NCBI GenBank assembly: GCA_029260815.1
Contig: JAJDCN010000339.1
Span: forward strand, 1 to 39,819
Length of the DNA stretch: 39,819 nucleotides
DNA from: Planctomycetota bacterium
Lineage (GTDB): Bacteria > Planctomycetota > B129-G9 > JAJDCN01
Reading direction: 5' to 3'
In this document: one piece after another, positions 1,382 to 39,730 of the stretch
How the letters are laid out: each line of letters begins with the position of its first letter
Position numbering within the stretch: the stretch's first letter is position 1
Notes under the pieces: generated by a model
Databases searched by the model: none
What the model was told of the DNA's origin: nothing
The model's input: the letters and a program-made list of their open reading frames with translations, nothing else
Translations under genes and position numbers: made by a program

Positions 1382-4300
1382 CTACTTCCCCTTCAGTTTC
1401 TTTCGCTCCCGAAGAACCGCCGCGCCGCCAGTGTGTCTTGCCTCGTCGTGGATCCTCTTCGGCAGGAGGAGCATCGTCTCGCCGTCCTCGACGTGATGCC
1501 AAGTGAATCCCTCGGGCGTACATGGGAGACCCGCTGCCGCGTTGGCCTTCGCGGCATCTGTTTTGTTGCGTCCCGTAAGCCCCCGAAGCCGGACTCTCGC
1601 GCGCGCGAATGGCCGGAAGTGGGGGAACCCCTCGGAAGTGAAGTACACGCCCGACGGGTGCCGGCGCCCCGCGAACTTGTAATTGATCGGACGGCGGCCG
1701 TTCACTAGACGAAGACCGGGAGACGTTCCTGAGCCGGGAATCGTGGCGGTACGCGCACCCGCGGCAATGCTCGAGGCAGTCTTGCCATGCCGCAGCGCCT
1801 TTGCCAGCGTTACGCCTCCTCCGACGAGCTCAGCAGCTGCCGCGACCCCTCTTCCCGCCGCAGCAGCAGTGCTGAAGGTCTTGTCGTTCGTGAATAGGTG
1901 CGGTAGTAGGCCCCCGCCAGTGACTTGATCAAGCGCTCCCCATACACCTCCGCCTGCGACCTTGCCTAGCTCGGCAAGATCTCCGTCTGCCCACGCCTCT
2001 GCGGCAGTGACTGCGCTCTTCGCCGCAGCCTCCGCCGAGTGCACGGCGGCCTCTCCGGCCGCCTTCACGTAGGGAGAGGCGGCCCGTCCAAGTCTCACGT
2101 ACCCTTGGATCATCGGGTCTTCCCGAAAAGTCCTGCCGACGGACGCTTCGAAGAGGAGCCCCGGCACGTGCTTCGCCATGCTCAGGAGCTTCTTCCACCA
2201 CGGATCGTCACCATCCAATCCAAACGGATCTGTCCAGTTGGTGGGGGAGCTTGAGACGTACTGATAGAGGTTTGGCCCAGGCGCGTAGCCGAGGGGATCG
2301 CGCTGAAGGAAGCGCCCGATGGCCGCGGAGTAGTACCTCGAGCGGTAGTACTCTAGTCCGCTCTCCTCGTCGTGGAATCGACCCGTGTACATCCACGGGT
2401 TGCCGAGTGGGTCGCTCGACTGTGTCGTCGAGTTGCGCGTGATCGTCACCGAGCCGTAGGGGTCGTAGCGGTAGCTCACCACCACGGCCTCGTTCATGTC
2501 CGTGATAGCCATCACGGACCCGAGTGCGTTGCGGTGATAGAAGCTCCGCGTGGACTCCGTGGTGTTGGCGTCGGAGTCGAAGTCCAGGACATCGGCCTGC
2601 TTGAGCATCAGGACTTCGTCGATGACCTGGCCGAATACGAACTCGCGTACCAAGACGTTCGAGCCGTCGTACACGGCGACGGTCTCGTTGCCCGAGTGGA
2701 TGTAGCGCTCGACGTTGGTCTGATCGTCCTTTTCGACCCGGCGGCCCAAGGCGTCGTACTCGTACTCGGCGATCGTCGTTGAGGCCTGCTTGATGCGAAC
2801 GATCTGGTTCTTGTAGTCGTACTCGTACTTCTGGCTGCCGTCGTCCGTCAGATTGCCGTTCTTGTCGTGGACGTAGGTGTAGCTGCCTACGGCTGTGTAC
2901 TGGTTCAGGTTGTTGTCCGTGTAGGTCGTCGTCGTCGCGCTCTGGCCGTACGGCGTCACCTTCACGGAGGAGCGGTTGCCGTCGTCGTCCAGCGTGTATT
3001 CGACCTTCTTGGTGTACGAGTTGCTCGACGGCGCTGTCACGTCCGTCGAACCCACCCAGGCTGTGGTGAGGCGCCGGGCCGCGTCGTAGTCGAAGGCGTC
3101 ACCCGCTGAGCCCGCCCCGCCGAAGCGTTCGTAGAGCCGATCGTGGTTGTCGTCGTAGGCGTACTGGAGGTCCACGAGCGTCGCTGCGCCCGAAGACTGA
3201 TGATGGATGCGTTCGACCTCGCCACGGAATCCTGTGTAGCTGACGTTGGCCTTAGCTCCGTTCTGGAACGTGACGCGGTTCACGCGCGTTCCGGTGTAGT
3301 CGTACGACGCGATCGTGTTCGTGCCGTCCGTCACGGTCGAGAGGCGGTCGATGTCGTTCCACGTGCGGTCGAGATCCAGGCCCGAGGGGTAGAGCTCCGT
3401 GATCACGTTGCCGACGGCGTCGTAGGTCTTCTTCACCGTCTTCGTGTAGGCCGTGCCGCCCACATAGGACTGCTTCTCCTCGTACACGCCCGAGGACAGT
3501 CCGATCACGCCGTAGGTGAACTCAACCTTGTAGTCGTTGTCTTCCGCCTTCGTCATGCGGCCAGCGCCGTCGTACGTAAAGGTCTCGCTGGTCGTGCCGA
3601 GGAAGCCCGTCGCCCTCGTCACCGTGCGCGACGTGCGCTGGTTGTTGTCGTCGTAGACATCGTCGATGACGTTCCCAGCCGCGTCCGTAGTCTTGGTGAT
3701 GTTGTCAGCGTCGTCGTAGACGTACGTGATCTTCTCCAGGTCCGGGTACTTGAGCTCTGTCACCCGGTCCAACGCATCGAACGTGTACGTCGACGTGTTG
3801 CCCGCATCGTCCTTGTGGGTCGTCATCCGGTCGTTCTTGTCGAAGCCCCACTCGGTTACGACCGCCGAGGTGAAGTCCTCGATCGTGGTTCCCGTGGCCA
3901 GCGCCACCTCCTTCTTGGTCATTCGACCTGCGGCGTCGAACGTCCAGCGCGTCGGGTCGCCCTCCGCGTTCACTCTCCAGAGGAGGTTGCCTCTGCTGTC
4001 GTAGCCGTACTGGACTTCGAGTCTGTTGAGGCTGTCGTTGCGATCGATCTCGACGTAGCTCGTCCGGCGATTCAGTTCGTCGTAGCCGGCCTCGTACTCG
4101 TGCGTCACGGACGTCATGCCCACGACCTCTTCGATGGACCACGCCGTCGGGTTGCCGTTCTTGTCCAGCGTCCAGGTCGTCTTGTTGCCCAGCGCGTCCG
4201 TCACCTTCGTCCGGCGCCAGGCGTTGTCGTACTCGTACGTCGTATCCTTGCCTCGGGCGTTGGTGATCGTCTTCACGTGACCCGTCTTGAATCGCTCGAC

Positions 4301-6565
4301 CTCCGTTACCGCGTTCGAGTAGGTCGTGCCGGGGTCCTTGTGGACGTCGGAGATCTCCCAGAGCCGCCCGCGCTCGTCGTAGTCGTAGTTGCGCTCCTGG
4401 AGGAGTACGTCTGCGCTGTCGTAGCGGCGCAATCTCGTTACGCGCCCGTTCTTGTTGAGTGAGACTTCGGCGTAGTGGCCGATCGGGTCGGTGGCCTTCG
4501 TGCGTCGGTCGAAGAGGTCGTAGGTGTGGTCGGTGTCCTTGTCCCGGCCATTCGTCACGGTGATCAGATTGCCGTTGGCGTCGTAGGCAAACTCCGCCTC
4601 CGACGCCTCGGTCGCCGTCTCCCCGCGTGTGATCTTGCTGATGTAGTCTCGCTCATCGAAGTCCCACTTGACCTTGTTGCCTTCAGGCTTGGTGACGCGG
4701 ATGCGGTTACCACCCACGTCGTAGGCCAAGGTCGTCGTTCGTGTAGTCGAGACGTCGATCTCTTCGACGACCGTTAGGAGCTCGTCCTCGTCCGTGTACG
4801 TGAAGCTTGTCGTGATCCACGGATTGGCCGTGACCGTGTCGCCGTCCTCGTCCTTGTTCTGAATCTCGACCTTGGTCAGGTTGCCGTTGGCGTCGTACTC
4901 GTACTTCGTCTCGTCGGATAGGGGTGTGGGCGCTGTGCGCTTCGTCAGGCGCCGGAGGTTGTCCCATTGGAGGGAGGTGGCGTTGCCGCGCGCGTCCGTG
5001 ATCGACGTGATGTTGCCGGCAGAGTCGTAGGCAAACGAGGTCTCTAGGTCCAGTCCCGTCGAGTCCACCTCGATCTTCTCGAGCAGGCCCCAAGTCGAGC
5101 CGGTCGTCGCAATGTAGTGGTACTTGGTGACCTTCTCTTCCTCGTCGGTCACCTGGGTGATCTGCCCGTAGGTGTTGTAGGTGATGTCCTTGTCGGCTGT
5201 TTGCGTTGCGGGATCCGTCACCGTCGGATAGGCGATCTTCGTGACGTTGCCGTCGCTGTCTCTTGTGAAGCTTGTCTGGTCGCCCATGGGGTTCGTGTAC
5301 GTCACCATGAAGTTGCTGGTGTAGGTCCACGTGTGGACGATGTCCGATGCGTCGGTCGAGGCCGTGTCTGTCGTCTTGTGGCGCCGCTCAGTGAGGTTGT
5401 CGCTGCCGTCCCACGTGTAGTCGATGCGATTGCCGCGCGGGAACACCACGGTGACGACCTGGCCGCCAGAGTAGGTGTACTCCGTCGCGTACTTGGCGAC
5501 CGAGCTCACGTACATGTCGGTCTTCGTGATGTTGGCGCCAGTGTGATGGGCGCGGTGGATGTTGCCGTTGCGATCCGTGCGGTCGGTGCGACCGCTCACA
5601 AGCGTGTACTCAACGTCGGCGCCATCGATGGTCACCTTGTCGATCTTCGCCGTCGATCCGACCCAGGTGTACTCGTTGACCGTGTTGCCGCGCCCATCCT
5701 CGATGCTGGAGATTCGATCGGAGGCGTCGTAGGAGATCGTGGTCGTGATGCCGCTGACCTGCTGTGCGGTTGCGGGCGTGTCGATCGTCTCCAGGTTGCC
5801 GTTCGTGTCGTAGCCAAACTCCCACTTCTGACCAGAGGGGATCTCGATCTCGCTGAGGAAGCCGTCGGCGTTGTGGTCGAAGCTGAACGATCCCCCGCGT
5901 GTGTCCGTCAGGCCGGTGATCTGGTAGCTGCTGTTGTAGGTGAAGTCGAGTTCGTTGCCGTTGCGGTCGGTGTACTTGTCCGGCATGCCGTTGGCGTCGA
6001 AGAGCATCTCGGCGCCGTACTTGTCGGTCAGCTTGTAGATTCCCGAGCTAGGGGACGTCAGGGTGTGGTGCACGCTGCAGTCTTGTGTCGAGTAGTCCGT
6101 GCCGTCCCAGTCGTAGGTCACAACGAGACCAGAGGAGTCGCGCCAGTGAATCTGGTGCCCACCGTTTCCGTCGGGATCCTCGGGATCTAGCTCGTCGTAC
6201 TCGACGGTGTGTTCGAACGAGAGGATGAAGCCGTTGCCGACCTGTGTCATGCCGGATCGGTAGCTGCGCCACGAGAGGGAGATCGGGAAGTCTCCGCCGA
6301 CGCCCCGCAGGCGGCACAGGTCGTACGTGAACACGAGCTCGGTGGTGACCCAGTTCACGTTCTCGGCTGACCACAGCGCCGGCCGGGGGCACGGGGGGCA
6401 CCAGCAACCAGCACACTCCTGCTGGGGCGACGTGTTGCTCCAGAAGGGCGAGGAGTACGTGGTCGCTTCAGCGACACGGGGCGCGGGAACAAGCAGCGCG
6501 GCTACGCCCACGAGCACCGCAAGGACAACGACGAACGGACCATAGCGACGGATCTGGCGTGCCAT
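1382..6565 (-). CDS. Rhs/YD-repeat polymorphic toxin with Sec-type signal peptide and C-terminal WHH (HNH/EndoVII-fold) nuclease
   Basis: Many YD repeats; core end RFLQRDPLG...NLYQYVSSSPTNWTDPFGL; tip GFPHF...GFTWHHVED...IHDEARHTGG. Start placed at ATG 6565 (GGGAG 6 nt upstream), giving MARQIRRYGPFVVVLAVLVGVAALLVPAPRVAEA. Confidence 0.93.
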   Translation of the reverse strand: MARQIRRYGPFVVVLAVLVGVAALLVPAPRVAEATTYSSPFWSNTSPQQECAGCWCPPCPRPALWSAENVNWVTTELVFTYDLCRLRGVGGDFPISLSWRSYRSGMTQVGNGFILSFEHTVEYDELDPEDPDGNGGHQIHWRDSSGLVVTYDWDGTDYSTQDCSVHHTLTSPSSGIYKLTDKYGAEMLFDANGMPDKYTDRNGNELDFTYNSSYQITGLTDTRGGSFSFDHNADGFLSEIEIPSGQKWEFGYDTNGNLETIDTPATAQQVSGITTTISYDASDRISSIEDGRGNTVNEYTWVGSTAKIDKVTIDGADVEYTLVSGRTDRTDRNGNIHRAHHTGANITKTDMYVSSVAKYATEYTYSGGQVVTVVFPRGNRIDYTWDGSDNLTERRHKTTDTASTDASDIVHTWTYTSNFMVTYTNPMGDQTSFTRDSDGNVTKIAYPTVTDPATQTADKDITYNTYGQITQVTDEEEKVTKYHYIATTGSTWGLLEKIEVDSTGLDLETSFAYDSAGNITSITDARGNATSLQWDNLRRLTKRTAPTPLSDETKYEYDANGNLTKVEIQNKDEDGDTVTANPWITTSFTYTDEDELLTVVEEIDVSTTRTTTLAYDVGGNRIRVTKPEGNKVKWDFDERDYISKITRGETATEASEAEFAYDANGNLITVTNGRDKDTDHTYDLFDRRTKATDPIGHYAEVSLNKNGRVTRLRRYDSADVLLQERNYDYDERGRLWEISDVHKDPGTTYSNAVTEVERFKTGHVKTITNARGKDTTYEYDNAWRRTKVTDALGNKTTWTLDKNGNPTAWSIEEVVGMTSVTHEYEAGYDELNRRTSYVEIDRNDSLNRLEVQYGYDSRGNLLWRVNAEGDPTRWTFDAAGRMTKKEVALATGTTIEDFTSAVVTEWGFDKNDRMTTHKDDAGNTSTYTFDALDRVTELKYPDLEKITYVYDDADNITKTTDAAGNVIDDVYDDNNQRTSRTVTRATGFLGTTSETFTYDGAGRMTKAEDNDYKVEFTYGVIGLSSGVYEEKQSYVGGTAYTKTVKKTYDAVGNVITELYPSGLDLDRTWNDIDRLSTVTDGTNTIASYDYTGTRVNRVTFQNGAKANVSYTGFRGEVERIHHQSSGAATLVDLQYAYDDNHDRLYERFGGAGSAGDAFDYDAARRLTTAWVGSTDVTAPSSNSYTKKVEYTLDDDGNRSSVKVTPYGQSATTTTYTDNNLNQYTAVGSYTYVHDKNGNLTDDGSQKYEYDYKNQIVRIKQASTTIAEYEYDALGRRVEKDDQTNVERYIHSGNETVAVYDGSNVLVREFVFGQVIDEVLMLKQADVLDFDSDANTTESTRSFYHRNALGSVMAITDMNEAVVVSYRYDPYGSVTITRNSTTQSSDPLGNPWMYTGRFHDEESGLEYYRSRYYSAAIGRFLQRDPLGYAPGPNLYQYVSSSPTNWTDPFGLDGDDPWWKKLLSMAKHVPGLLFEASVGRTFREDPMIQGYVRLGRAASPYVKAAGEAAVHSAEAAAKSAVTAAEAWADGDLAELGKVAGGGVWGALDQVTGGGLLPHLFTNDKTFSTAAAAGRGVAAAAELVGGGVTLAKALRHGKTASSIAAGARTATIPGSGTSPGLRLVNGRRPINYKFAGRRHPSGVYFTSEGFPHFRPFARARVRLRGLTGRNKTDAAKANAAAGLPCTPEGFTWHHVEDGETMLLLPKRIHDEARHTGGAAVLRERKKLKGK

Positions 6566-6845
6566 GAGCATCTCCCTCGCGCGCCACTGGGAAGGACTCT
6601 GGGCGCGACCAATGCTCCGGTTCTGCCTGAGGTGAGGGCCCAGCTTCAATCGCCGCGTACGAATGTAATTCAAATGAAAGACACGAGTCGGCCGTCTCCA
6701 AGGGGAGTCCGGCGTCCCTGTCGAGCGGCGGCCGCACCAGGGTTTCTCCCGACGGCGGGGCGTAGCGCATGTCCGCCCAGCGTCACGCTGGTTGTCAGGC
6801 CTGCACGAGGCACTACCCTGGTTGGACCTGTCGGGGAGACACGGA

Positions 6846-7550
6846 ATGAGCGGGGAGAGGATCCTCATAATCCATCGGCGTCAGCGCGTGCGTGATCGCA
6901 TCCGGCGCTACCTGAAGGCTGCGCCCGGCGGGCTCAGCGTGAATCGCCTTTCTGATGATGAGTTGGCGCTCTCCCGTCTCCAGGTCCTTCGTCCTCACGT
7001 AGTGGTGCTTGGCTGTCGGTTCGACAGCGACGTTGATTGTTGGCGTCTCTGTCGTTCGATCCGCAGGCGCCATCCCCGACGTGAGTTGGGCATCCTCGCA
7101 GTCGTCTCCTGCCTCGAGGACGGGTACGAGTCGCGCGCTCTACTTGAGGGGGCCGATCTCTGTCTCCATGCAGAGCGCCTGAGTCGGGACGTCGTGCAGA
7201 CGAATGTGGCAGGTCTCGTGCAGCGGGTCGGTCGGCGTCGGGACCGCCGCCTGCGTCTGGGCGCCCTGACTCTTGTTTCACAAGGACGGTGGATGCGGGT
7301 GCGGGGGCGCAAGGTGCAACTCACGCCAACGCAGTTCAGCGTCCTCTGGCGCCTCGCCCAGGCTCCTGAGCGGCTCCATTCGGCGCGGGCGGTCATTGGG
7401 TACGGTGACTCTGTGCCACCGGAGAAGGCTGAGCAACTGGCGTACATCCACATCCACAGGCTCCGTAAGCGCCTCGGAGAGGACTCAGGGCTGATCAGGA
7501 GCGTGAGGGGCATTGGCTACGGCCTAGACCTCAAGTGGCAGGCTGGCTAG
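6846..7550 (+). CDS. OmpR/PhoB-family transcriptional regulator with degenerate (pseudo) receiver domain
   Basis: C-terminal wHTH LTPTQFSVLWRLA...YIHIHRLRKRL...IRSVRGIGY; receiver-like N-terminus RILII...PHVVVLG...ALLEGAD lacks the acidic pocket and phospho-Asp. Confidence 0.85.
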   Translation: MSGERILIIHRRQRVRDRIRRYLKAAPGGLSVNRLSDDELALSRLQVLRPHVVVLGCRFDSDVDCWRLCRSIRRRHPRRELGILAVVSCLEDGYESRALLEGADLCLHAERLSRDVVQTNVAGLVQRVGRRRDRRLRLGALTLVSQGRWMRVRGRKVQLTPTQFSVLWRLAQAPERLHSARAVIGYGDSVPPEKAEQLAYIHIHRLRKRLGEDSGLIRSVRGIGYGLDLKWQAG

Positions 7551-7583
7551 GTGCGATCGCGTGCTCTGTGCCTCATGCCGGCA

Positions 7584-7943
7584 CTAGTTGATGGTCGAAT
7601 CGCCGTCTTCCTTCTCGTCGTCGTTCGCGAACAGCCCGGCGCGCTCGATACGGTCCATGACGAAATCGTCGACGTCGCCAACCACCTGGAATCGGAGCTG
7701 CCCATGCTTCACGGCCACCCTGATGAGGCCGGCCATGACCAAGTGCATCACGCCGCGGGTGCTCTGGAAATCGGTCAGCCAGTCGATCGCTACGGCTTGT
7801 TCCGCCTCGGACCCGTCGGCAAGGTGTTCGAGGAATGCCCGTCGTTCGGCCTTCTCAAGCTCTGGCGTGACGGACGTGTAGGACGCGAGATTCGGGTCCA
7901 TGGCTCCTCTCGTGCATGTGTCGGAGCTGAAGCGTCCCACCAT
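7584..7943 (-). CDS. Small acidic hypothetical protein
   Basis: ATG-started ORF with protein-like composition, fills the gap convergent with the regulator; no motif recognised. Confidence 0.45.
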   Translation of the reverse strand: MVGRFSSDTCTRGAMDPNLASYTSVTPELEKAERRAFLEHLADGSEAEQAVAIDWLTDFQSTRGVMHLVMAGLIRVAVKHGQLRFQVVGDVDDFVMDRIERAGLFANDDEKEDGDSTIN

Positions 7944-8254
7944 GGCGTACTCAGCCCCTCATGCGCAACCCCCTGCCGAACGGTCTCACGGGCCTTTGCC
8001 GCTTGAGTACTTCAGCGGCGGCGCTCTCTAGGGCTCTGAGGTGAGTACGGCGACCGCTGAGGCAAGCAGCAGGAGAACCAGAACGAAGTTCCCCCCTCGA
8101 AGCGAGGCGCGGATTGTGCGCGGGTGGGGCATGTCGCGAGCATAGCACTCCTCAGAGTCCACGTGCGATGTGGCCCCTTGATGGCGCTGACAACTCGCCA
8201 TAGGCTCGGGGATGTGGAATCGCCAATCGGACGGATTGGCTGGAGGAGTGGGAC

Positions 8255-8446: not shown

Positions 8447-8552
8447 GTGCAGGGGAGCATCAAGGCCGCCGCGCCTTGCTAGCGAGCCCGGGACACTTGG
8501 GCCATGTGCTTAGCCCTAGGTGCAGACGATGACGTCGTGAGGAGAGGTGGAC

Positions 8553-10310
8553 ATGCGGGTATCAGCCAAGAAGGAAGGCTTCTCTGTGCACGCAATCTCG
8601 GGCACTCGTGCGGTCATCTTGGCCATGAACGCCCGGGAAGACGCTCTTCAGGACTTCCTCGGGTTCGGGATCGGCATTCGTTCGCCAGGCGATGGCGCGA
8701 TTCGCTGGCTACGAGGGTTCAAGTGTTTCGCGACGTTGGAGCCCACTCCGACGCGCGGCCAGCGGTTCGAGACCGTCGAACATCCCATTCAAGGCTTTAT
8801 GTGGGGACACTACTGGGCAGACCCCGATCAGGAGTATCGATACGTCGTACGTCCGCTGTTCTTGCCAGCGAGCGGCAAGTTGGACGACCTCAGGCACGGC
8901 GCGGATCTTGAGGTGACGATTCGCACCGAGAAGGAGGACTCCGGTACGCACTCCATCTACTTCAATCGCGGCGCGATCGTGAGCCAGGCGTACGCGGAGA
9001 AGTTCCAGAATGACAACAACCTGACCGCCGCCGAGCTGAAGGCCGAACTCAACGACAAGGATGCTGAGAGGACCAAGTGGCTCTCGCGCGGCCTGCTGGA
9101 GGGGGCACTGGGCTTCATTGCACAGGCGAAGTCGAGTCGATTCTCGCTGCACTGCTGCTTCTACGAGCTGACGTACCCTCCCATTCTGAAGGCGCTTGCT
9201 GATGCGGCCGCGGCGGGCGCCGAGGTGCAGGTCACCTTCGACGCCGACCACTTCAAGCGCAGCCGTAACCGCCGCGAAGAGTCCGCGCAGGGGAAGCGCA
9301 ACCGCGAAGCGATTGAAGCGTTCAAGGGGCGGCCGCGCTTGCACTTCAAGGAGCGGATCCACTACATCTCGCTGACGCACAACAAGTTCATGGTGCTGCT
9401 GGACAATGGGCGGCCCGTGCAGGTCTGGACGGGCTCCACCAACATCACCCCCTCCGGCTTCTGTGGTCAGTCGAACACGGGTCACGTCGTCCGCAATGAG
9501 GCCGTCGCGAAGCAGTTTGAGGACTACTTCACCCTGCTGGCTCGTGACGAACAGCGTGAGGCCCTAAAGGTGTTCACTGGCGCGGCCTCGCCCAACCCTC
9601 CCGACAGTTTGCCCCCAAACAGCATCACGACCCTGTTCAGCCCTCGTCGTGGCGAGTCGATGATGGATTGGTACGGGGGGCGCGTTGAGGGCGCCAAGCA
9701 GACGGTCATCCTCACCTCGGCGTTCGGCGTGACCACGAAGCTGGCGAAGTACTTCGACAATGACCGTGACTACCTGCGCTACATCCTGATGGAGCAGAAG
9801 AGCCGTGGGGCTGGCGCGCAAGCGATGATCGAGCGCGACAAGGACACGCGGATCGTCCTTGGCCAGGGCCTTGGCTACACAGGCTCCATGGGAAACTGGC
9901 GGAAGGTGCCAGGCTTCAAGCTTGAGGAGTGGATGTGGCGCGAGCATCACTACCGCAGCTCCGGGCACGTGTTCTTCATCCACACCAAGTACATGGGCAT
10001 CGATGTGCTTACTGATGACCCGATCGTGTTCACCGGCTCGGCCAACTTCTCGCCGAACTCCCTCACATCCAACGACGAGAACATGCTCCTGATCCGAGGA
10101 GACACTGGCGTAGCGGACGTGTACCTGACGGAGTTCTTCCGGCTGTTGAACCACTTCTACTTCCGCCAGGTCGCGAACCGGAGGGCGAGGGACGGAAAGA
10201 GCGATTCCGGCGTGCGTTGGCTGGCGGAGGACGACAGCTGGGTGTGGGGCCACTATCAGCCCAGCTACTACCGATCAAAGCGCCGGGAGTTGTTTGGCGT
10301 GCCAGCCTAG
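8553..10310 (+). CDS. Phospholipase D-superfamily protein (two HKD motifs), cytoplasmic
   Basis: HNKFMVLLD...WTGSTN and HTKYMGID...FTGSANFS...NDEN; GGAGAGG RBS before ATG 8553; no signal peptide seen. Confidence 0.9.
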   Translation: MRVSAKKEGFSVHAISGTRAVILAMNAREDALQDFLGFGIGIRSPGDGAIRWLRGFKCFATLEPTPTRGQRFETVEHPIQGFMWGHYWADPDQEYRYVVRPLFLPASGKLDDLRHGADLEVTIRTEKEDSGTHSIYFNRGAIVSQAYAEKFQNDNNLTAAELKAELNDKDAERTKWLSRGLLEGALGFIAQAKSSRFSLHCCFYELTYPPILKALADAAAAGAEVQVTFDADHFKRSRNRREESAQGKRNREAIEAFKGRPRLHFKERIHYISLTHNKFMVLLDNGRPVQVWTGSTNITPSGFCGQSNTGHVVRNEAVAKQFEDYFTLLARDEQREALKVFTGAASPNPPDSLPPNSITTLFSPRRGESMMDWYGGRVEGAKQTVILTSAFGVTTKLAKYFDNDRDYLRYILMEQKSRGAGAQAMIERDKDTRIVLGQGLGYTGSMGNWRKVPGFKLEEWMWREHHYRSSGHVFFIHTKYMGIDVLTDDPIVFTGSANFSPNSLTSNDENMLLIRGDTGVADVYLTEFFRLLNHFYFRQVANRRARDGKSDSGVRWLAEDDSWVWGHYQPSYYRSKRRELFGVPA

Positions 10311-10446
10311 TCGCTGCCGTGCGCCTGATAGGGCGCCGCCCACGCGGCTTGCCTGCTGCTAACCGCCCGCTACGCGGGCCTTCCGCGCGCGAGACTTCTC
10401 GCGTGTGTGAGGCAGCGACGGGAACGGTGGCCACAATGGTCGCAAG

Positions 10447-10532
10447 TGACCTGCCCCCAATGAAACGGTCCAGCTACAGGGGGGCAGGTCCCCAAACCCC
10501 AAGACCTGGACTGACATTCGAGGATCAGGTCA
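10447..10532. mobile_element. Miniature IS3-family (IS407-like) remnant consisting of terminal inverted repeats only
   Basis: Left TGACCTGCCCCCAATGAAACGGTCCAG versus reverse complement of right end TGACCTGATCCTCGAATGTCAGTCCAG (16/27 identical, TG...CA ends); internal GGGGGCAGGTC copy; no target duplication seen. Confidence 0.5.
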
Positions 10533-10679
10533 AGAGCCCACAACGCGCTACACTGATGAGTGTGGAATATCTGAGAATCAAACGGGCGCTCCTCTTGACG
10601 GGGCATTGTCGCCAGTCCCCGCGATCGACGGTGCGGCCATTGCCGTCCGCGAACGAATCACATCAGTGGGAGGAGTGAC

Positions 10680-13010
10680 GTGGGCGCCTTCGAACAAATC
10701 CACCATGACGCCGGGCGCTACTCGCCCGCTGCCGCGGCCGAGCGCTATGTTCTGCCGCCCACGGGCATGCCCTCTCCGGATCAGAACTACCTGATCATTG
10801 GACCCAGGGGCGCCGGCAAGACAATCATGTTGAAGACGATGTTCTCGCGGTGGTCCGCGCGAGGCGATCTCCTGCCAGCGTACATCGAGCTTGACCGCTG
10901 GATTCAGGGCTGCGCAAGTGAGGTGGGCCGCGAAGAGGAGTCCGTAACACCGCGTGTCAGAGTAATGACGGATTGTCTCCGCCTCGCTACAGCGATGGGC
11001 TTGATTCATGGCGTCGCCAAGGCGGCCGAAGCGCTGATTGGCCAAGACCTTGCAACTCAGATCGTTGTGCCAGCCTTGCAGTACTCGAATCTCAGCACCA
11101 ACGTTGAGGAGGCGGTTGGTTCGGTCCGCAAGACGATCAGGCGCTGCATCACCGGCTCTGACTCCGGCGCGCCGGAGCCCCCCCATATACCCGCAGTAGC
11201 CGAGATACTCGGTGAACAGGCTCGGGCGGTCGGCGGGCGTGAGCTAGTTCTGCTTGTCGATCAGATAGACCAAGCCCCGTCCAGGGTGTTCGGTCCGGTC
11301 ATCTCTCTCCTTCGTCGGCACACTCACTGCATCGCCATTCTAGCGACTCGTCCGTGTCCCACGGCTCCTCAGCCTGCATTCCTGCCAGGGGACTGTGTGG
11401 CTGGAGACTCGTACCAGGCATGGAATCTGGATAGAGAGTCATTGGGGGATCCGTGGCAGCGCTTCCTGGGTGAAGTGCTGGCCAAGCTCCCTCTCGATGG
11501 CGTCCAGTCCAGACTCCAGGAGAGTGTCGGCGTGCTAGCGAATCTGACCTGGCCGTCACTCCGATCCGCCATCCGGATTGCGAAGGCTACAGCGCGCATG
11601 GCACCAGCAAGCAGCTTCGACGTTGCATGGCAGCAAGCACTCGCCGACGAAGCGGCCAGTCACGAGAATCTCGTGGAGTCCGCCCTGAGCGCCTGGTGCG
11701 ATCCACATGCGGTTCTACGCGACTGGCGCAAACGGGCAGTCAAGAACGCTGAGGCACCCGAGGACATTCGGTCTGGGAAGGTGAGTATCCGGGCATTCAC
11801 TCGGTTGAAGCTCCAAGCAGATGTTCTGTTTGAGGTTGCGCCAACGCCCGCATCCAGGCTGATACGCGTGGCCCTCCAGGCCGGCGTACTATCACCGACG
11901 AGAGATGCGCCATATGTACTGGACCACATTCCCCGGCGGCTTGAGGTCTCGCCGCTGCTCTTTTACCCAATCCTGCCTGGTGTGCCGACGACCGCACGCA
12001 CCACACAAGCCGTGTGGGATACGACGAAGGAGCAACTGAAGCCGCTAATGCGCGCCGGATTTGCACCCAAGGCGCCGAGACTGAAGCGCCTCTTCGTCTC
12101 ACACTGGATGAGTGATTGGGGCGGAGACAGCCCTGAGCTGTTTGCGTCTCTGTCAAATGCACTGCATGGCGTGATCGACGTTCGAACGGGTGCCTCCGTC
12201 GACGGGAACTTGTCCACAACCATCCTCAGCCAACTCAAGGAGTGTGACGCGGTTGTGTGTGACTTTGGAACGCCTAGGAGAGAGGTGTATGTCGAGTACG
12301 GATGGGCGATTGGTAACGAAATGCCCGTCCTTCACGTTGTGGTAGACGAAGACTGCATCGAACGCCTTCCCCATTGGCTCGCCCATCTGACAGTCCGGCC
12401 GTATGGGAGAGAGACCGAGAGAGAGGCACTGGCAGCGCGTGTACGGGCACTTCTGAGCCGGCGCCTTAGCACGGAGGAGCAGTTCAAGTCTCTTGGACCA
12501 ACCACTCTCAGGCGCACGCCGGAACCAAACGTAGTCAGTGTCCTGACGTCGGCGGAGACGGAGAAGTCAGTGTTGCAACGCTGCCGGCCTCTCATCGAGG
12601 AACATGGCTTCGTAATGCGACACCTAGTGATCAACAGTAACGACCCGGGAATGCTTGCACAGACGATCCTGGCGGCTCGGTGCGCTGGTAGCCTTGTCAT
12701 CGCGCTAGATGGCTCGGAGCACGACTACCTCGGGCTGGTCGCCGCGGCCATACTCCACGCTCGACCGAGCATGCGGACTACGAAGGCTGCTCGAACGAGG
12801 CCCAAGGCGCGAAAGAAGGTCCAGTACTCAACCAAGCTCAGGACGGTGTTCGTTCTTCCAACAGAACCCAGCCTCGGACTGCCAAAGCTACTCACCGGGC
12901 ATCCACGGACTGTGGTGACTGCCGACTATTCGGAACTCAGAACAAAGCTCGGTCTGCGAATCGCAGAGCTTTCGAAGTGGTTGCGAGCTGCGGGCAGAAA
13001 GACAACATAG
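10680..13010 (+). CDS. ORC/CDC6-like (STAND-related) P-loop ATPase fused to C-terminal NDT/TIR-like Rossmannoid domain(s)
   Basis: Walker A LIIGPRGAGKT, Walker B LVLLVDQID, later LRSAIR; C-terminal LFVSHW...ILSQLKECDAVVCDFG...EVYVEYGWAIGNEMPVLHV resembles NDT/TIR-like folds; GGAGGAG RBS before GTG. Confidence 0.8.
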   Translation: MGAFEQIHHDAGRYSPAAAAERYVLPPTGMPSPDQNYLIIGPRGAGKTIMLKTMFSRWSARGDLLPAYIELDRWIQGCASEVGREEESVTPRVRVMTDCLRLATAMGLIHGVAKAAEALIGQDLATQIVVPALQYSNLSTNVEEAVGSVRKTIRRCITGSDSGAPEPPHIPAVAEILGEQARAVGGRELVLLVDQIDQAPSRVFGPVISLLRRHTHCIAILATRPCPTAPQPAFLPGDCVAGDSYQAWNLDRESLGDPWQRFLGEVLAKLPLDGVQSRLQESVGVLANLTWPSLRSAIRIAKATARMAPASSFDVAWQQALADEAASHENLVESALSAWCDPHAVLRDWRKRAVKNAEAPEDIRSGKVSIRAFTRLKLQADVLFEVAPTPASRLIRVALQAGVLSPTRDAPYVLDHIPRRLEVSPLLFYPILPGVPTTARTTQAVWDTTKEQLKPLMRAGFAPKAPRLKRLFVSHWMSDWGGDSPELFASLSNALHGVIDVRTGASVDGNLSTTILSQLKECDAVVCDFGTPRREVYVEYGWAIGNEMPVLHVVVDEDCIERLPHWLAHLTVRPYGRETEREALAARVRALLSRRLSTEEQFKSLGPTTLRRTPEPNVVSVLTSAETEKSVLQRCRPLIEEHGFVMRHLVINSNDPGMLAQTILAARCAGSLVIALDGSEHDYLGLVAAAILHARPSMRTTKAARTRPKARKKVQYSTKLRTVFVLPTEPSLGLPKLLTGHPRTVVTADYSELRTKLGLRIAELSKWLRAAGRKTT

Positions 13011-13994
13011 ATGTCGGCTGCGACCACCATGAGTAACTTCGTGGCCTCTAGGCCGAACTTGACCGGTCCGTTGTACTGGCTTGGTGCGGCAAGCTTTGAA
13101 GAGCGGTGCCTGGGCAGTGCGCGAGTACTCGCGGAATTCGGCGGGTCACTCGAAGCAGGGCTCATTGTCGACTACGCAACAAAGATAGAGCCGGGCGGCG
13201 CTGGACAGGAGCTTAGAGCCAAGTACCGGAAGGCACTGTTTGACAGCTTGCCTGCGCGGGACCTGCCTCTTCAAGCGTATCGCTTCGGTCCGATGATCGG
13301 GGCACTGGAGTCTATTGAGAGGTCATGGGGTGGCAATCGCGCCACTACGCTGGTTGTCGATGCCACATGCTTCACCAAGATCCACTCGGTAGCACTCGGG
13401 TACTGGCTTGCGACCCAGCGTTGCGTCAAGGATGTCCTGGTCGCGTACACTCGTCCAATTGAGTACGGCACAGAGGTAACGAACGTGCAGGCGCGTGGAA
13501 GGTGGGTAGAGACCATCGTTGCACCTCTGGGTTTCGACCCACAGCTCACGAGCGGCGAAACGACAGGACTACTCCTTCTAGGTCACGAGGGTAGCAGGTT
13601 GCGGCTCGCGGTTGATGCGCTTGAGCCCGACGGTGGTCTGGCAATCCTCGCAGGCGCTGAGGACAGCGCCCTCACTCGGATCTCGGAGTGGAAGAACGGG
13701 TGGTTGCTTGGGCAAGCTGCGGAGGATGGGATCGACCTTGAGACGGTCGACTTCTTCTCTGCGCAGGCAATGCGCAAGTCGGTCTCAGGCGTCGCCGCGC
13801 AGGCACGGGCCGCGAACGCTCGGATGGTCATCTATCCCTTCGGACCGAAGCCGCACGTGATTGCGGCGTCGTTCTACGCCGCAGTCCTGGCACCGCGGCG
13901 ATCCTGGATCAGCTACCCCGTACCCAAGTCGTACTCGTTGACGTACACGTCAGGGGTGGGGCTGACGTACTGGGCGAGCATTCGACTCAGTTAG
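13011..13994 (+). CDS. Putative tandem CARF-like Rossmann protein coupled to the ATPase
   Basis: ATG immediately follows the ATPase TAG. Two repeats: WLGAASFEER...LVVDATCFTK...VLVAYTRP and LLLLGHEGSR...LEPD...IYPFGPKP...ISYPVP. The ORF is solid; the fold call is an inference. Confidence 0.65.
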   Translation: MSAATTMSNFVASRPNLTGPLYWLGAASFEERCLGSARVLAEFGGSLEAGLIVDYATKIEPGGAGQELRAKYRKALFDSLPARDLPLQAYRFGPMIGALESIERSWGGNRATTLVVDATCFTKIHSVALGYWLATQRCVKDVLVAYTRPIEYGTEVTNVQARGRWVETIVAPLGFDPQLTSGETTGLLLLGHEGSRLRLAVDALEPDGGLAILAGAEDSALTRISEWKNGWLLGQAAEDGIDLETVDFFSAQAMRKSVSGVAAQARAANARMVIYPFGPKPHVIAASFYAAVLAPRRSWISYPVPKSYSLTYTSGVGLTYWASIRLS

Positions 13995-14074
13995 ACGCGT
14001 GTAGTTCACGTGTCGTTGAGCTTCCCCCGGTCTGGTGGACACCTACCCCGTGTGGATCTCAGTTGCCGCGAGCG

Positions 14075-14167
14075 CAGCCTGTCGAGCTGGGGGTCACTAC
14101 ATGGCGGGCGCCACGGATGGGGCTTCCCGAGGGGCCGCAGGGATGCTTGGGCGCATGCTTGTACACG
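14075..14167 (+). repeat. Cryptic internal att-like junction (core half-site plus arm repeats)
   Basis: CAGC-CTGTCGA-GCTGGGGGTCACT: 6/7 match to the anticodon-loop overlap TTGTCGA, then the exact reverse complement of core arm AGTGACCCCCAGC; arm tandem TGCTTGGGCGCA-TGCTTGTACACG starts 59 nt after the overlap (61 nt at the left end). Confidence 0.75.
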
Positions 14168-14289
14168 AATCGCGGCCGGAGGATTTCGTGATGCTATCGG
14201 TCGAGCTGTTGCTTGCGTCGAGGGATTCCACGAACTCACGAATGCTCATCTTCGCCGGGAGGGTGACCATGCAGAGCTCGCACGAGTGA
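14155..14289 (+). CDS. Small att-adjacent ORF, homolog of 209-358
   Basis: MLVHESRPEDFVMLSVELLLASRDSTNSRMLIFAGRV; same position relative to arm repeats as ORF 209-358. Could be a decayed copy. Confidence 0.45.
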   Translation: MLVHESRPEDFVMLSVELLLASRDSTNSRMLIFAGRVTMQSSHE

Positions 14290-14449
14290 CCTAGGTAGCT
14301 GGGGCAGGTCACTGGGCCAGTACAGGCTTCCCACCAGGTTGCCCAAGACCCCGTTCAGGTCCATGCCGTGCTTCGCTCTCGCGATGACTGGCACTCAGCG
14401 GACTTGGACCTCATGACAAGGTTGGCCAGGCGCGGTAGGTTGACGCGCT

Positions 14450-17400
14450 GTGGGGAAACGCTACGCCGTCATCGCCTTGATGCTCTTGGCCGGAATCGGG
14501 GCATGGCTTTGGCCCATGGCGGAGGATGAGGACCCCTGGGCATTCTCCATCGATGTCCCGTACACGGATGAGACCAACCCCTTCACGGAGGAGCGGCTGA
14601 GGGCGCGGCTCGCGCGAATCACTCCGCTCGTGGAAGAGGTCGTGGGGCAGGCGATTCGGACGGACGAGCTGCGGATCACCATCGCGGACGGTTTCGTGGC
14701 CGCGCACCGGGAGCTTCAAGAGGCCTACCCGCACCTGCTCGATCCGACCGGGCCTGATTACGCCTTCGTGCCACTCTTCCTGACGTACCTGAACTTGCAG
14801 GAACAGTGGGCTTCCCTGCTCGGCCGGTATGTGCCGCAAGCGAAGACGATCGAGTTCTACCCATTCATGTTCGAAGCCATCGAGCCCGAGGACCTGGACG
14901 CCCTGATCGACGTGATCCTTGCGCATGAGCTTGCCCACGTCTGGCAGGACCAGAGGTTCGGCGCGTTCGAGCACGAGGGCGTGGAAGACACGACGGAGAC
15001 CGCTCTCGCACGGGCTGCCGTCGTGGAGGGCACGGCCGAGTTCGTCTCGCGGGAGGTTGCCAAGCGCCTGGACGCTGTCTCTTCCTTCGACCTGGTGGCG
15101 TCCAAACGAGACGAGCAGACGGAGAAGAGGACCGGGACGCCGACGCAGCGGGCCATCGCAAGGTGGCAGCGTTGGGCCTACGGGGAGGGCCTGCGGTTTG
15201 TCGAGACGGTGCATGCCGAGCTTGGGGCCCCGGCGACCTGGCAGCGGTTGTTCGGCGCGATGCCGTCGAGCGTTTGGAGCATCGAGCATCCGAAGGCGTG
15301 GGCTGAGCGCCCTGGCACACCGAGCGCCGACCTGGATGCTTGGGCAAGCCGCCTGCTCTCGATCCTGGAGGCCCATCGGCCGAGGTTCGACTCGCAGCGC
15401 AAGTGGGGGCATCGACCGCTGATCCGGGAAGACGTCGTTGAGCGTCTGGGCTCGGCCGGCCTGTCGATGGTGTCAGGTCCCTGGGAACGACTCCAAGGAG
15501 GCGTCCTCTTTGCCGGCACTCCGAAGCGCGGTCCTCTGGCTGGAACCAGCTTCCTGCTTCGGGCATGGCGGTTCCCCACGGACGGCGATGCGCTCGAAGC
15601 ACGCGCGGCACTTGAGGGTGCCTTCGCGAGACTCGGCCCCCGGGCCTGGGCGGGCAAGGACGTCGAACAGACTCTTGGAGCGACACGTGTACGCGTGGGG
15701 CCGAACGGCGCCGTCGTGCGTTCATCGCTTGTCTTCGATGACGCTCCCTTGCACGCCCACGAGGGGGCGTGGGGTCTGCACGGACACGGGTCGATGGTGT
15801 TCGAGGTCATCGGTTGGCGCGATGGAATCGGACCTGCGCTCCTGGACATCTTGGACGCGGCCGTCAGGGCCGTGACGGATGGGGAAGCGATCGACCTCGC
15901 GATCGGCGGTGTCGCCACGGCGGAAAGTCCCTACGTCAAGCTGGGGGAACTGCGAGGCGGCTCGTCCGCAGGGCCGGCGCCCTTGGGTGCAGAGACGCTC
16001 GCAGCCCTCCGTGACGAGTGGATCGCTCGCGTCCTAGCCGGCAACACGGGCGAACGCGCACTTCTCCAGTGGCTTCAAGCAGAGCCAAGGCCGCCCGCAG
16101 CGTGGATGACCGCTGTTGGCCCGGCCGCTGGTGAGGAGGAGCTGGAGGGAGTCGAGAGGGGCCGCCTCCTTCTGGCCGCCCTCCTGCACGAGGATGCCGA
16201 GCTCAGGCGGTTTGCCCTCGGTGCTATTGCGGAGCGGCGTTGTCGCCTGCCCCCGTGGAGTGCGGATGTCGTAGCTCGGATCGCCCTTCTGACCGGCGAC
16301 GAGGACCCCTGGGTGCGGGCCGTGGCCGTTCGAGCGGCCGAGGCCATGGCCAAGCAGAAGCCGTTGGGTGAAGCTCGGATCGATGCCTTGGCGTCAGATG
16401 CTTCCCCGGCGGTGCGCGCAAGCCTGGCCGTGAGTCGGGGGGTGCTGAAGACGCGTAGGCGCTCGGTGCTTGCGCAACTCGCAGCGGACTCTCACCTGGC
16501 CGTGAAGCGAGCAGCAGATGCCGAAGATCCTGACCAGGGGAAGGGGACAGGGGCCTTCGTGGATCGGGTGTTGGAGATCTCCCGGCGGAAGGACGGAGAG
16601 GCGCCTGCTCCGCGTGAGGACGGCCCGGTCGATCCGACCGCCGCGTTCAACGTCATGTTCGAGGCGATGCTGACGAACTCCATGGGCAAGAACCAGGAGG
16701 AGTTGGAGCGCCGCATTCGCCGATTCCTCGTGGAGGGCGATGCCTCTGTCCGCGTCATGGCACTCCAAGCCATCCAGTTCATGGGAGGCGCCCGCCAGCG
16801 CTTCCTCCCCGAGCTCGTGCGAGCCTTCGATGTGGCTCTTCCCCGCCACGGGGCGTCGATGACGCTCTGCAAAGGTGGTCTTGACCTGACCCCTGCGCGA
16901 CGTCACCTGCTTGCCATGGTGGCCCACCCGTGGTGGCGGGTACATGTGCTCCGCGCGATCGCCGCGAACGAGCTCGACCTGCCGGAGGACGTCTCCAAGC
17001 AGGTGACCGACTGGATGGGCTCTCGCGACCTGCTGTTGCGCGCTGCGTCCGCTCTGCTTGTCTTGCGGCTGGATGCCGATGACGCGAAGCCCCTGAAGGT
17101 GCTCGAAGGTGCCTGGGCGGCGCTTCCCTCCGACTGGCGCGTGCAGGCCCTCGAGGCTGTGAGGACGCACCGACCCGGGAGCAGCGCGGCTGCCCGGCTT
17201 GAGCAACGGGCGCTGTACTCGGGCTTCCGCGAGGAGAGAAACGTCGTGTTCGACGCGCACAGGGACGGGACGTTCGACGAGCCGTACGTGCGGGCGCTCC
17301 TGGACGGCATGGCCCGTTCCAGTCCCGAGGTCGTGGAGGAGTACTGGTCGCACATCCTGGACAAGGCGTGGGATCCGGGCGACGAGGAACTGCAGCTGAT

Positions 17401-37983: not shown

Positions 37984-38208
37984 ATGGCCAAGGAAGAACC
38001 CCAGAAGGCAGGCGTCGCAGGTCTGCCGCAGCTCCTGAAGGTCGCCGAGGTGTCGACGATCTTGAACGTCGATCAGCGAACGCTGCGCGCCTGGATCGCA
38101 GCCCGGAAGATCGGCGTCGTGCGCCTGTCTAGCCGCTGCCTGCGCATTCCGTCAGGCGAGCTCGAGCGTTTCATCGAAGAGCGTCTCGATGGGCCGAAGA
38201 CGCGCTGA
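37984..38208 (+). CDS. xis: Excisionase / recombination directionality factor (HTH_17)
   Basis: LLKVAEVSTILNVDQRTLRAWIAARKIGVVRL...LRIPSGELERFI directly upstream of the integrase. Confidence 0.82.
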   Translation: MAKEEPQKAGVAGLPQLLKVAEVSTILNVDQRTLRAWIAARKIGVVRLSSRCLRIPSGELERFIEERLDGPKTR

Positions 38209-38278
38209 ACGAGGTCCAGGACGCTCGGCCTCTTGGGGTCACCACAACTCGTTAGAATGGGGACGTTGGAGGTATGCC

Positions 38279-39724: not shown

Positions 39725-39730
39725 ACGCCC
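39654..39730 (-). tRNA. tRNA-Val (anticodon GAC)
   Basis: Reverse complement folds as GGGCGTT-TA-GCTC AGTTGGCTA GAGC-A-CCAGC TCGACAA GCTGG-GGGTC-ACTGG TTCGAGT CCAGT-AACGCCC-A-CCA (77 nt, encoded CCA). Confidence 0.97.

Follow-up and report, generated by a model that had tools for sequence, protein, structure and literature searches.

What kind of system is encoded by two abutting genes at positions 10680-13994 of a 39,819-nucleotide (nt) contig from a Planctomycetota bacterium (JAJDCN010000339.1, assembly GCA_029260815.1)? The whole contig, which belongs to a metagenome-assembled genome (MAG), is referred to here as the window; the upstream gene was named A and the downstream gene B. The original prediction had presented the pair as a candidate undescribed two-gene defence system in which a fusion of an origin recognition complex (ORC)/CDC6-like ATPase and a nucleoside deoxyribosyltransferase (NDT)/TIR-like domain is accompanied by a tandem CARF-like protein. 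We found that the pair belongs to a catalogued, unnamed family of ATPase and CARF6 gene cassettes, in which it is a rare two-gene variant with a rearranged layout and no methylase. The best explanation overall, towards which we lean on balance, is that A and B form a self-contained, horizontally mobile conflict module directed against phages or plasmids; that the pair serves conflict or defence in some form is highly probable. The elements of the pair are as follows.

10680-13010, + strand: gene A, an open reading frame (ORF) of 776 residues with a GTG start, encoding ORC/Cdc6-like ATPase, NDT/TIR-like and flavodoxin-like domains.
13011-13994, + strand: gene B, an ORF of 327 residues with an ATG start, encoding a predicted single-chain tandem CARF protein of the CARF6 type without an effector domain.
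10668-10675, + strand: Shine-Dalgarno-like GGGAGGAG, 4 nt 5' of the GTG start of gene A, read from the sequence.

The two ORFs abut as had been described, the TAG stop of gene A (13008-13010) being followed directly by the ATG of gene B (13011). GC content over the pair is 0.59-0.62, slightly below the 0.66-0.68 of the 15-22 kb stretch of the window, and a scan of positions 10200-14500 for promoters and terminators returned nothing above shuffled controls. All motifs on which the original prediction relied were located in the translations: in A, GPRGAGKT at residues 41-48, FVSH at 472-475, CDAVVCD at 522-528, VYVEYGWAIG at 536-545 and PV at 549-550; in B, D117-A-T-C-F-T-K123 and P275-F-G-P-K280, both with a Y-x-(x)-P pattern further on (Y146..P149 and Y302-P-V-P305, respectively).

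Relatives of A were collected by an exhaustive HMMER search, which gave 125 representatives at E<=1e-3, 78 of them at E<=1e-10, mostly of 730-780 residues and aligned over their full length; a word-indexed search gave a single relative with 33% identity. An alignment of 66 full-length relatives (A2) was the base for an AlphaFold model and for the family scans. In the model (predicted local distance difference test (pLDDT) 88.5, predicted template modelling score (pTM) 0.83), a P-loop core occupies residues 1-250 and is followed by a helical stretch (257-365) and a small region of alpha/beta type (368-460); two Rossmannoid domains, at 469-593 and 615-773, complete the five parts. The domain list given originally, an ATPase and an NDT/TIR-like domain, held in what it named and was incomplete, as it overlooked the helical/winged-helix-like region (257-460) and a third, C-terminal domain (608-776). 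We divided the protein into three modules.

10680-12044, + strand: residues 1-455 of A, the ORC-CDC6-like module, with an AAA+ core (Walker A G41-T48; Walker B D194/D197), a helical lid and a winged-helix-like region.
12072-12479, + strand: residues 465-600 of A, an NDT/DNPH1/MilB/TIR-like Rossmannoid domain and predicted N-glycosidase effector, with F472, G504, D528, R533, E539 and G541.
12501-13007, + strand: residues 608-776 of A, a flavodoxin/receiver (REC)-like Rossmannoid domain with conserved D682, present in all related loci.

Residues 1-455 of A are homologous to the whole ORC-CDC6-like ATPase, including its lid and winged-helix module. In structural comparison (VIA), residues 5-432 matched the archaeal AAA+ protein PAB2304 (2qen_A; Z 16.8, 314 residues aligned), and the module also matched SSO1545 (2fna_B; Z 16.1) and Cdc6/Orc1 (2qby_B; Z 13.9), the last of which was ranked first by Foldseek. 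TnsC and NTPases of the MalT and nucleotide-binding leucine-rich repeat (NLR) type were likewise among the VIA matches, with NLRs and Avs5 at Z 10.8-12.1. The ORC/CDC6-like assignment was upheld at the level of sequence profiles, since hhalign of A2 against eight PF24389 (ORC-CDC6-like) proteins gave a probability of 98.5% (E 2.7e-15) over 431 columns covering A residues 10-455. PF24389 was matched by 49 of the 66 relatives (best E 5.8e-11), AAA_16 by 60 and nSTAND_NTPase5 by 26. The conserved residues of A in the alignment are G41, G44, G46 and K47 of Walker A, D194/D197, R224, F472, G504, D528, E539, G541, P564, W566 and D682. Overall identity of A and B to the window copies across the 12 loci compared is 17-37%, and K47, D194, D197, E539 and G541 are identical in all 12; the P-loop residues G41, G44, G46, K47, T48, D194 and D197 are intact in the window copy and in all 12, save for S48 in one locus (L020).

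The domain that follows the ATPase module is probably the effector. Residues 467-602 of A matched MilB (4ohr) at Z 13.7, with a root-mean-square deviation (rmsd) of 2.8 over 132 aligned residues and 17% identity, followed by the SfSTING TIR domain (Z 12.7), NDTs (Z 11-11.8), other TIR domains (Z 10.5-11.4) and RCL/DNPH1 (Z 10.5), such that TIR folds (Z 10.5-12.7) stand level with NDT-type folds in the match list. When the A-family profile was searched against the PDB, DNPH1/Rcl chains were found at E 1.8e-5 and the NDT 2a0k at E 1e-3. In the profile alignment E539 lies opposite the GYELG Glu of Rcl, which we take to be the catalytic residue (nucleophile), and D528 opposite the Glu of AEVT; E539 is kept in 63 of the 66 relatives and G541 in all 66, in line with the NDT/TIR-like domain and conserved Glu originally proposed. 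Nuc_deoxyrib_tr (PF05014) was matched by 23 of the 66 relatives (best E 1.8e-5) and Pfam TIR_2 by one. The PADLOC TIR effector model matched 29 of the 66 (best E 1e-7), the window copy weakly (E 0.026). DNPH1/Rcl, MilB and the NDTs resemble the A domain in fold and in the motif D-x-T...E-x-G-x-A-x-G-K-P, whereas they are small free-standing dimers of nucleotide catabolism, antibiotic biosynthesis or salvage and the A domain is a module of a 776-residue ATPase.

The last domain of A (residues 616-775) matched REC and flavodoxin-like folds at Z 10.3-10.8 in VIA. Its language-model features lay nearest to TIR_2 clusters (0.84-0.88, under the 0.9 line and thus a lead only), and hhalign against the NDT-like domain of A was not significant (E 0.012). 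It is possibly a degenerate second TIR-like domain.

Gene B has 20 relatives besides itself; an alignment of 19 B relatives (A1) was made. We assign B as a tandem CARF pseudo-dimer which, judged from its model, retains canonical predicted ligand-pocket residues in both halves.

13053-13526, + strand: residues 15-172 of B, predicted N-terminal CARF half; strand 1 is followed by S28/E30/R32 and strand 4 by D117-x-T119-x3-K123 (plus C120 and H125).
13548-13991, + strand: residues 180-327 of B, predicted C-terminal CARF half; strand 1' is followed by G191-H192-E193..R196 and strand 4' by G278-P-K280.

The AlphaFold-type model of B (pLDDT 88.7, pTM 0.91) shows two six-stranded Rossmann-like halves, each with a terminal hairpin, with strands at residues 20-27, 46-54, 82-86, 113-117, 141-147 and 165-172 in the N-terminal half and at 184-190, 208-215, 241-247, 271-276, 298-305 and 319-326 in the C-terminal half. 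Its best structural match was Can1 (6sce_A; Z 14.9, rmsd 3.2, 229 residues aligned), which spans both halves (residues 20-307). The next 30 VIA rows were mostly CARF or SAVED proteins, among them Can2, Cam1, Card1, Csx1-Crn2, Csa3, Csm6, a viral SAVED ring nuclease, SAVED-CHAT, Cap5 and Cap4. CARF domains matched one or both halves at Z 9-14.9, those of Can2, Cam1 and Csa3 aligning to residues 182-309 at Z 10.5-12.3. Makarova et al. (2014) define the CARF fold by a six-stranded Rossmann-like core with strands 5 and 6 as a hairpin, and its signature by a polar S/T that ends strand 1 together with a basic residue that follows strand 4, in many cases within [DN]X[ST]XXX[RK]. B has two such six-stranded units and carries S28 and D117-A-T119-C-F-T-K123 in the first half; the second half has K280 after strand 4', yet its strand 1' ends in G191-H192. 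Twenty-two columns of A1 are invariant, among them S28, E30, R32, D117, C120, T122, H125, G191, H192, E193, R196, N229, G278 and K280, and T119 and K123 are nearly so. Of 21 tabulated residues, 19 are identical in all 12 loci and the other two in 11.

Profile searches point the same way. The PADLOC models named 'CARF6--CARF_CARF_CARF', which carry no curated cut-off, matched B at E 2.5e-10 (PDLC01923) and at E 1.8e-7 (PDLC01917, residues 20-324 against profile positions 15-302 of 308) as well as 16 of the 19 relatives (best E 1.9e-20). The tandem CARF call thus gained both fold and profile evidence. The claim of two repeats in B was borne out by the model and the fold matches; an hhalign comparison of one half with the other gave no significant sequence match (E 0.02, probability 2%), though in the same register as had been proposed. 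Pfam gave no match for B and a match to HFX_2341_N in one of the 19 relatives, and a Foldseek search of the model against BFVD gave generic Rossmann matches only. Tandem universal stress protein (USP) and potassium-chloride cotransporter (KCC) C-terminal domains topped the Foldseek search of B against the PDB with TM scores of 0.24-0.27 and were set aside, as CARF and SAVED proteins dominate the fuller VIA alignment.

Loci that carry B were found by pattern scans with the B alignment, and their flanking ORFs were typed with hidden Markov models (HMMs) from A2 and A1. This gave one locus in the species-level genome collection (L001, a Blastocatellia MAG) and 22 in metagenomes; the pattern scan found no B relative in viral contigs. 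In 19 of the 23 loci, B is directly preceded on the same strand by an A-family ORF, so the co-conservation implied by the two-gene proposal was observed. The remaining four either have at most 172 nt of upstream DNA (L010, L018 and L023) or retain only a fragment there, at the contig edge (L022). As the L005, L006 and L007 proteins are identical, leaving 17 distinct loci of the 19, and those of L002-L004 share 80-90% identity with each other, the independent cases are fewer than 19. Of 12 loci in which A and B are both complete, seven have a spacing of 0 or -4 nt between the two. The matrices of pairwise identity for A and for B over 12 loci are correlated (r=0.95, a value reached in none of 2000 permutations), which indicates joint inheritance of the two genes and not co-evolution as such. 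No third gene is conserved across the 19 A-B loci. Over the 401 genomes of the phylum sample, the B profile gave a strong match solely in the window's own genome (E 1.7e-117); four other genomes gave weak matches to canonical CARF6 proteins.

Two of these loci carry altered copies of A. In L012, a second, 5'-truncated A-like ORF (3-989, + strand) lies directly upstream of the full-length gene and aligns solely to the ATPase/helical part (profile positions 129-449) before it stops, as an effector-less tandem paralogue. L021 (1365-3568) holds a damaged copy in which the A gene is split into two overlapping ORFs.

The wider family to which the pair belongs was delineated by a PDLC01917 search of the 400 other phylum genomes, which gave nine places in eight genomes; about 6 kb was fetched on each side. 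In all nine, the CARF6 gene is directly preceded by a PF24389 ATPase gene (E 1e-28 to 3e-108). The ATPase is combined with the following partners.

L034 and L038: N-terminal TIR_2 fusion.
L040 and L041: N-terminal protein-kinase fusion.
L035 and L042: separate HD-CE (PF24391) gene.
L039: PRTase-CE (PF24390) gene.
L036: N-terminal domain without family assignment.
L037, 7016-9036: copy broken by an insertion sequence, with a truncated PF24389 ATPase gene beside a DDE transposase gene.

These sibling cassettes share with the pair a homologous ATPase and CARF partner, the position of the ATPase gene upstream and TIR-like domains among the effectors. B aligned with seven sibling CARF6 partners over its full length (hhalign probability 99.9%, E 1e-34), and the HMM of the A effector domain also matched the TIR_2 domain at the N-terminus of the L034 ATPase (E 1e-4 in a set of 617 ORFs). 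The pair differs in that its effector sits at the C-terminus of the ATPase, whereas that of the siblings is N-terminal or encoded by a separate gene; in that this effector is nearer to NDT/DNPH1 than to Pfam TIR_2 and is followed by an extra flavodoxin-like domain; and in that a DNA methylase adjoins at most two of 16 pair loci compared with seven of the nine sibling cassettes. In an unrooted tree, one branch (support 99/96) splits 12 B proteins from seven canonical CARF6 partners. ThyX occurs in two sibling cassettes, following them in L035 and L037. L034 (5191-6972) and L035 (4473-6269) also encode a C5 cytosine methylase fused to an HhH-GPD/EndoIII-like glycosylase domain; together with ThyX, these fusions hint at a base-modification theme in the wider family.

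Because the ATPase and tandem-CARF core already has Pfam and PADLOC models, we regard the pair as a distinct, rare branch and not as a wholly undescribed kind of system, so that the novelty claimed for it holds for the branch and not for its core. Its lack of a clean mapping to a named system was borne out in so far as PADLOC, run on A and the window's other large ORFs, named none (A gave its weak TIR effector match and a trypsin-TPR protein weak protease matches); the same core nevertheless recurs in catalogued cassettes with other effectors and methylases. The name CARF6 reportedly comes from Makarova et al. 2020. The term was not found in the relevant full-text literature searched, nor did that literature contain a named or tested system of the same make-up, although the CARF classification of that work may already list the architecture. 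The MADS system was considered and rejected as an identity for the pair: two of the 66 A relatives weakly matched mad8, and MAD3-MAD4 is described as an OLD-like ATPase-nuclease module, in an abstract that makes no mention of CARF.

We scanned the neighbours of the pair in 16 loci (65 proteins, 6-7 kb flanks). Defence or mobility genes flank it in nine of the 16, consistent with the defence or mobile-element surroundings expected of it.

L001: type I restriction-modification genes and integrase.
L002: endonuclease and methylase.
L003, L015 and L021: transposases.
L004: D12 methylase with DUF7687/7690.
L016: TraG, relaxase and integrase.
L017: VapB.
L020: TIR_2, SNase and HsdM.

Enzymes that might supply a CARF ligand were sought in the same material and in the window's own genome, which is 89.4% complete. 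SMODS gave no match in that genome or among the 65 neighbour proteins of the 16 loci, and the second palm domain of Cas10 gave none in the genome. The scanned flanks contain no cas genes, and a GGDEF/Cas10-palm-like gene occurs in L002 only. That gene (7431-8228, + strand) encodes a 266-residue GGDEF-type protein about 1.6 kb downstream of the pair with a match to the second palm domain of Cas10/Cmr2 (E 9e-6), a possible nucleotide cyclase at one locus only.

How might the two proteins work together? We propose that the ATPase and the CARF6 protein would form a constant sensing and regulatory core and that the variable module would be the effector, here a domain of the N-glycosidase type. The occurrence of a TIR-like effector at either end of the same ATPase, which documents domain shuffling, supports reading the ATPase and CARF pair as a portable sensor core. 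Upon infection, B would bind a nucleotide-type ligand; alternatively or in addition, the ORC-like module could be triggered by binding invader DNA. B, DNA or both would then license ATP-dependent oligomerization of A, and the oligomers would bring the NDT/TIR-like domains together into active sites, which would break an essential nucleotide (NAD+ or of the (d)NMP/(d)NTP type) at its N-glycosidic bond and thereby abort the infection. Activation by proximity through ORC-like oligomerization is proposed because NDT/DNPH1 enzymes act as dimers and TIR enzymes as oligomers. Cassettes whose effectors are chemically unrelated retain the same CARF6 pocket residues, which makes the effector an unlikely source of the ligand of B; this ligand is probably derived from the infection or is a host nucleotide, because neither SMODS nor Cas10 was found in the genome. 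As a complete chain of steps, this mechanism is offered tentatively.

Its individual elements have counterparts in characterized systems. In STAND (signal transduction ATPases with numerous domains)/NLR TIR proteins, such as plant TIR-NLRs, Avs and proteins of the TIR-STING type, a cue makes an NTPase oligomerize, which switches on a TIR-like domain through proximity, and the AAA+ ATPase of RtcR is gated by a CARF domain. By comparison, the ATPase of A is of the ORC/Cdc6/archaeal type and has no repeat-type sensor, and the CARF component is a separate tandem protein. Can1 (PDB 6SCE), a DNA nuclease of type III CRISPR that cA4 (cyclic tetra-adenylate) switches on, resembles B in having two CARF domains in one chain that form a pseudo-dimer, whereas B has no nuclease domains, is 11% identical and comes from a genome in which no Cas10 was found. 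The SAVED sensors of the cyclic-oligonucleotide-based antiphage signalling system (CBASS), as in Cap4, Cap5 and TIR-SAVED, also combine a double-CARF-like sensor (SAVED Z 7.0-9.6) with a nucleotide-cleaving effector of the TIR type. In the pair, sensor and effector are on separate proteins with an AAA+ ATPase between them, and no CD-NTase (cGAS/DncV-like nucleotidyltransferase) was found. The pair accordingly shows neither the CD-NTase link and sensor-fused effector of SAVED/CBASS systems nor the Cas10 link of type III CRISPR ancillary proteins. A cyclase-independent TIR-SAVED is reported in a preprint (10.1101/2025.06.19.660554) to read host c-di-AMP, which provides a precedent for sensing without a dedicated cyclase.

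Three other accounts of the pair must be weighed against a sensor B that controls an effector in A. The order of signalling could be reversed as in Thoeris, such that A senses infection, its domain makes a messenger (for example an ADP-ribose isomer) and B is the receptor that signals to the ATPase of A or to an unlinked host effector. The pair does share with Thoeris a TIR-like domain and a nucleotide-binding Rossmannoid partner; the TIR fold matches are good (SfSTING Z 12.7, ThsB Z 10.5), the PADLOC TIR effector model picks up 29 of the 66 relatives, and B, a ligand-binding fold without an effector of its own, needs a ligand source for which no cyclase was found. Its pocket residues (S-x-E-x-R, D-x-[ST] and G-x-K), however, are unchanged in the kinase, HD and PRTase cassettes, which makes a product of the variable domain an unlikely ligand. 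B moreover has no output domain, and the 19 loci offer no third conserved gene to supply one; a ThsA-type effector gene (SIR2 or Macro/SLOG) is not conserved beside the pair in the loci examined, the partner of the TIR-like domain is a CARF protein and the domain itself is fused to an ATPase. We judge this account improbable. B might instead be an enzyme, either a ring-nuclease-like phosphodiesterase (serving as an off-switch or sensing phage sponges) or a processor of nucleic-acid ends, while A alone senses and executes. Such activity is suggested by matches to a viral SAVED ring nuclease (9r8s; Z 9.9, 187 residues aligned), Sso2081 (Z 9.0) and Csx1-Crn2 (Z 10.9) and by invariant residues of a catalytic type, including H125, H192, E193, C120 and K123. 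Yet no synthase of a messenger for it to degrade was found in the genome or the loci, and Can1 and most of the other matches use their CARF pocket for binding, fold likeness being no proof of catalysis. An enzymatic B is thus unlikely.

The third account places the pair outside immunity, as an addiction or stabilization module of mobile elements in which B restrains a toxic hydrolase, or as enzymes of nucleotide salvage or housekeeping. Integrases, transposases and conjugation genes beside the pair would suit the former; the latter would fit the salvage and catabolic functions of NDT/DNPH1 relatives, and the loci that have no defence gene nearby suit either. Against this, the distribution of the pair is patchy and rare (a strong B match in one of 401 phylum genomes and one locus in the species-level collection), it is homologous to the TIR, kinase, HD and PRTase cassettes, seven of nine with an adjacent DNA methylase, and an ORC-like ATPase of 455 residues is unexpected in a salvage enzyme. 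We consider a non-immune function very improbable and retain the conflict module with B as sensor and A as executor.

Several findings nonetheless weigh against that conflict module or its parts. Seven of the 16 scanned loci have no recognisable defence or mobility gene in their flanks, and no enzyme able to make a ligand for B is conserved near the pair. The number of invariant polar residues in B (S, E, R, D, T, C, K, H, H, E, R, N and K) is unusually high and suits an enzyme as well as a sensor. The search found no fused A-B protein or longer form of B, which is weak evidence. For A, the window copy has no match to Nuc_deoxyrib_tr (PF05014) at E<=0.1, and NAD+, dNMP and other substrates of the NDT/TIR-like domain are indistinguishable in silico. 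The window copy scores 16.6 bits against PF24389 (E 0.0035), with only residues 32-54 aligned and a cut-off of 27; as this is below the gathering cut-off, A was filed as a divergent homologue of PF24389 and not as a Pfam member. The literature searched contained no experiment on any member of the family, and the role of every part is deduced from folds and context.

A more specific function of the effector can also be envisaged. It might be a hydrolase of the DNPH1/MilB type acting on 5-modified pyrimidine nucleotides of phages (of the hydroxymethyl-dUMP/-dCMP type), which the tandem CARF protein would sense, giving a non-abortive defence. The substrate of MilB is a 5-hydroxymethyl pyrimidine nucleotide, and the matched DNPH1 chains in the PDB carry the depositors' name '5-hydroxymethyl-dUMP N-hydrolase'. 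This possibility arises because MilB, the top fold match, and DNPH1, the top profile match, act on 5-hydroxymethyl pyrimidine nucleotides and because ThyX and Dcm-HhH-GPD genes occur in sibling cassettes. If it were true, phages with hypermodified DNA would be starved of precursors, and the siblings with methylase, ThyX and Dcm-glycosylase genes would share a theme of base modification. We regard it as a long shot. Whatever its substrate, the pair is the smallest version of the cassette seen: it has two genes, lacks a methylase and carries one effector domain, in which a single catalytic Glu is predicted. It would therefore provide a clean entry point to the ligand of CARF6 proteins in the absence of Cas10 or a CD-NTase, to CARF control of an ORC-like ATPase, and to depletion of NAD+ as opposed to (modified) nucleotides.

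Other genes of the window include one that lies directly upstream of the pair.

8547-10310, + strand: 587-residue protein resembling phospholipase D (PLD)-family nucleases, with two PLD-like regions (PLDc_2 E 2e-23; weak DrmC, NucT and ZacB similarity).

This gene stands beside the pair in the window only and is absent from the other scanned loci. It is probably a separate defence-type gene, since no PLD gene accompanies the pair elsewhere. Further upstream on the - strand, positions 1382-6868 encode an 1828-residue RHS-repeat protein, a polymorphic toxin whose C-terminal tip is a nuclease of the WHH/colicin-DNase type. The 203-residue ORF downstream of it (216-827, - strand) has no family match and could be its immunity gene. 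In the stretch of the window with the lowest GC content (0.59-0.61), two large overlapping ORFs occupy positions 28039-33937 on the - strand; one encodes 701 residues without a family match and the other 1299 residues with an N-terminal alpha/beta-hydrolase match only. At the end of the contig, a tyrosine integrase gene (38189-39724, + strand) runs into a tRNA-Val gene (39654-39730, - strand), an arrangement suggesting that an integrated island makes up part of the contig.

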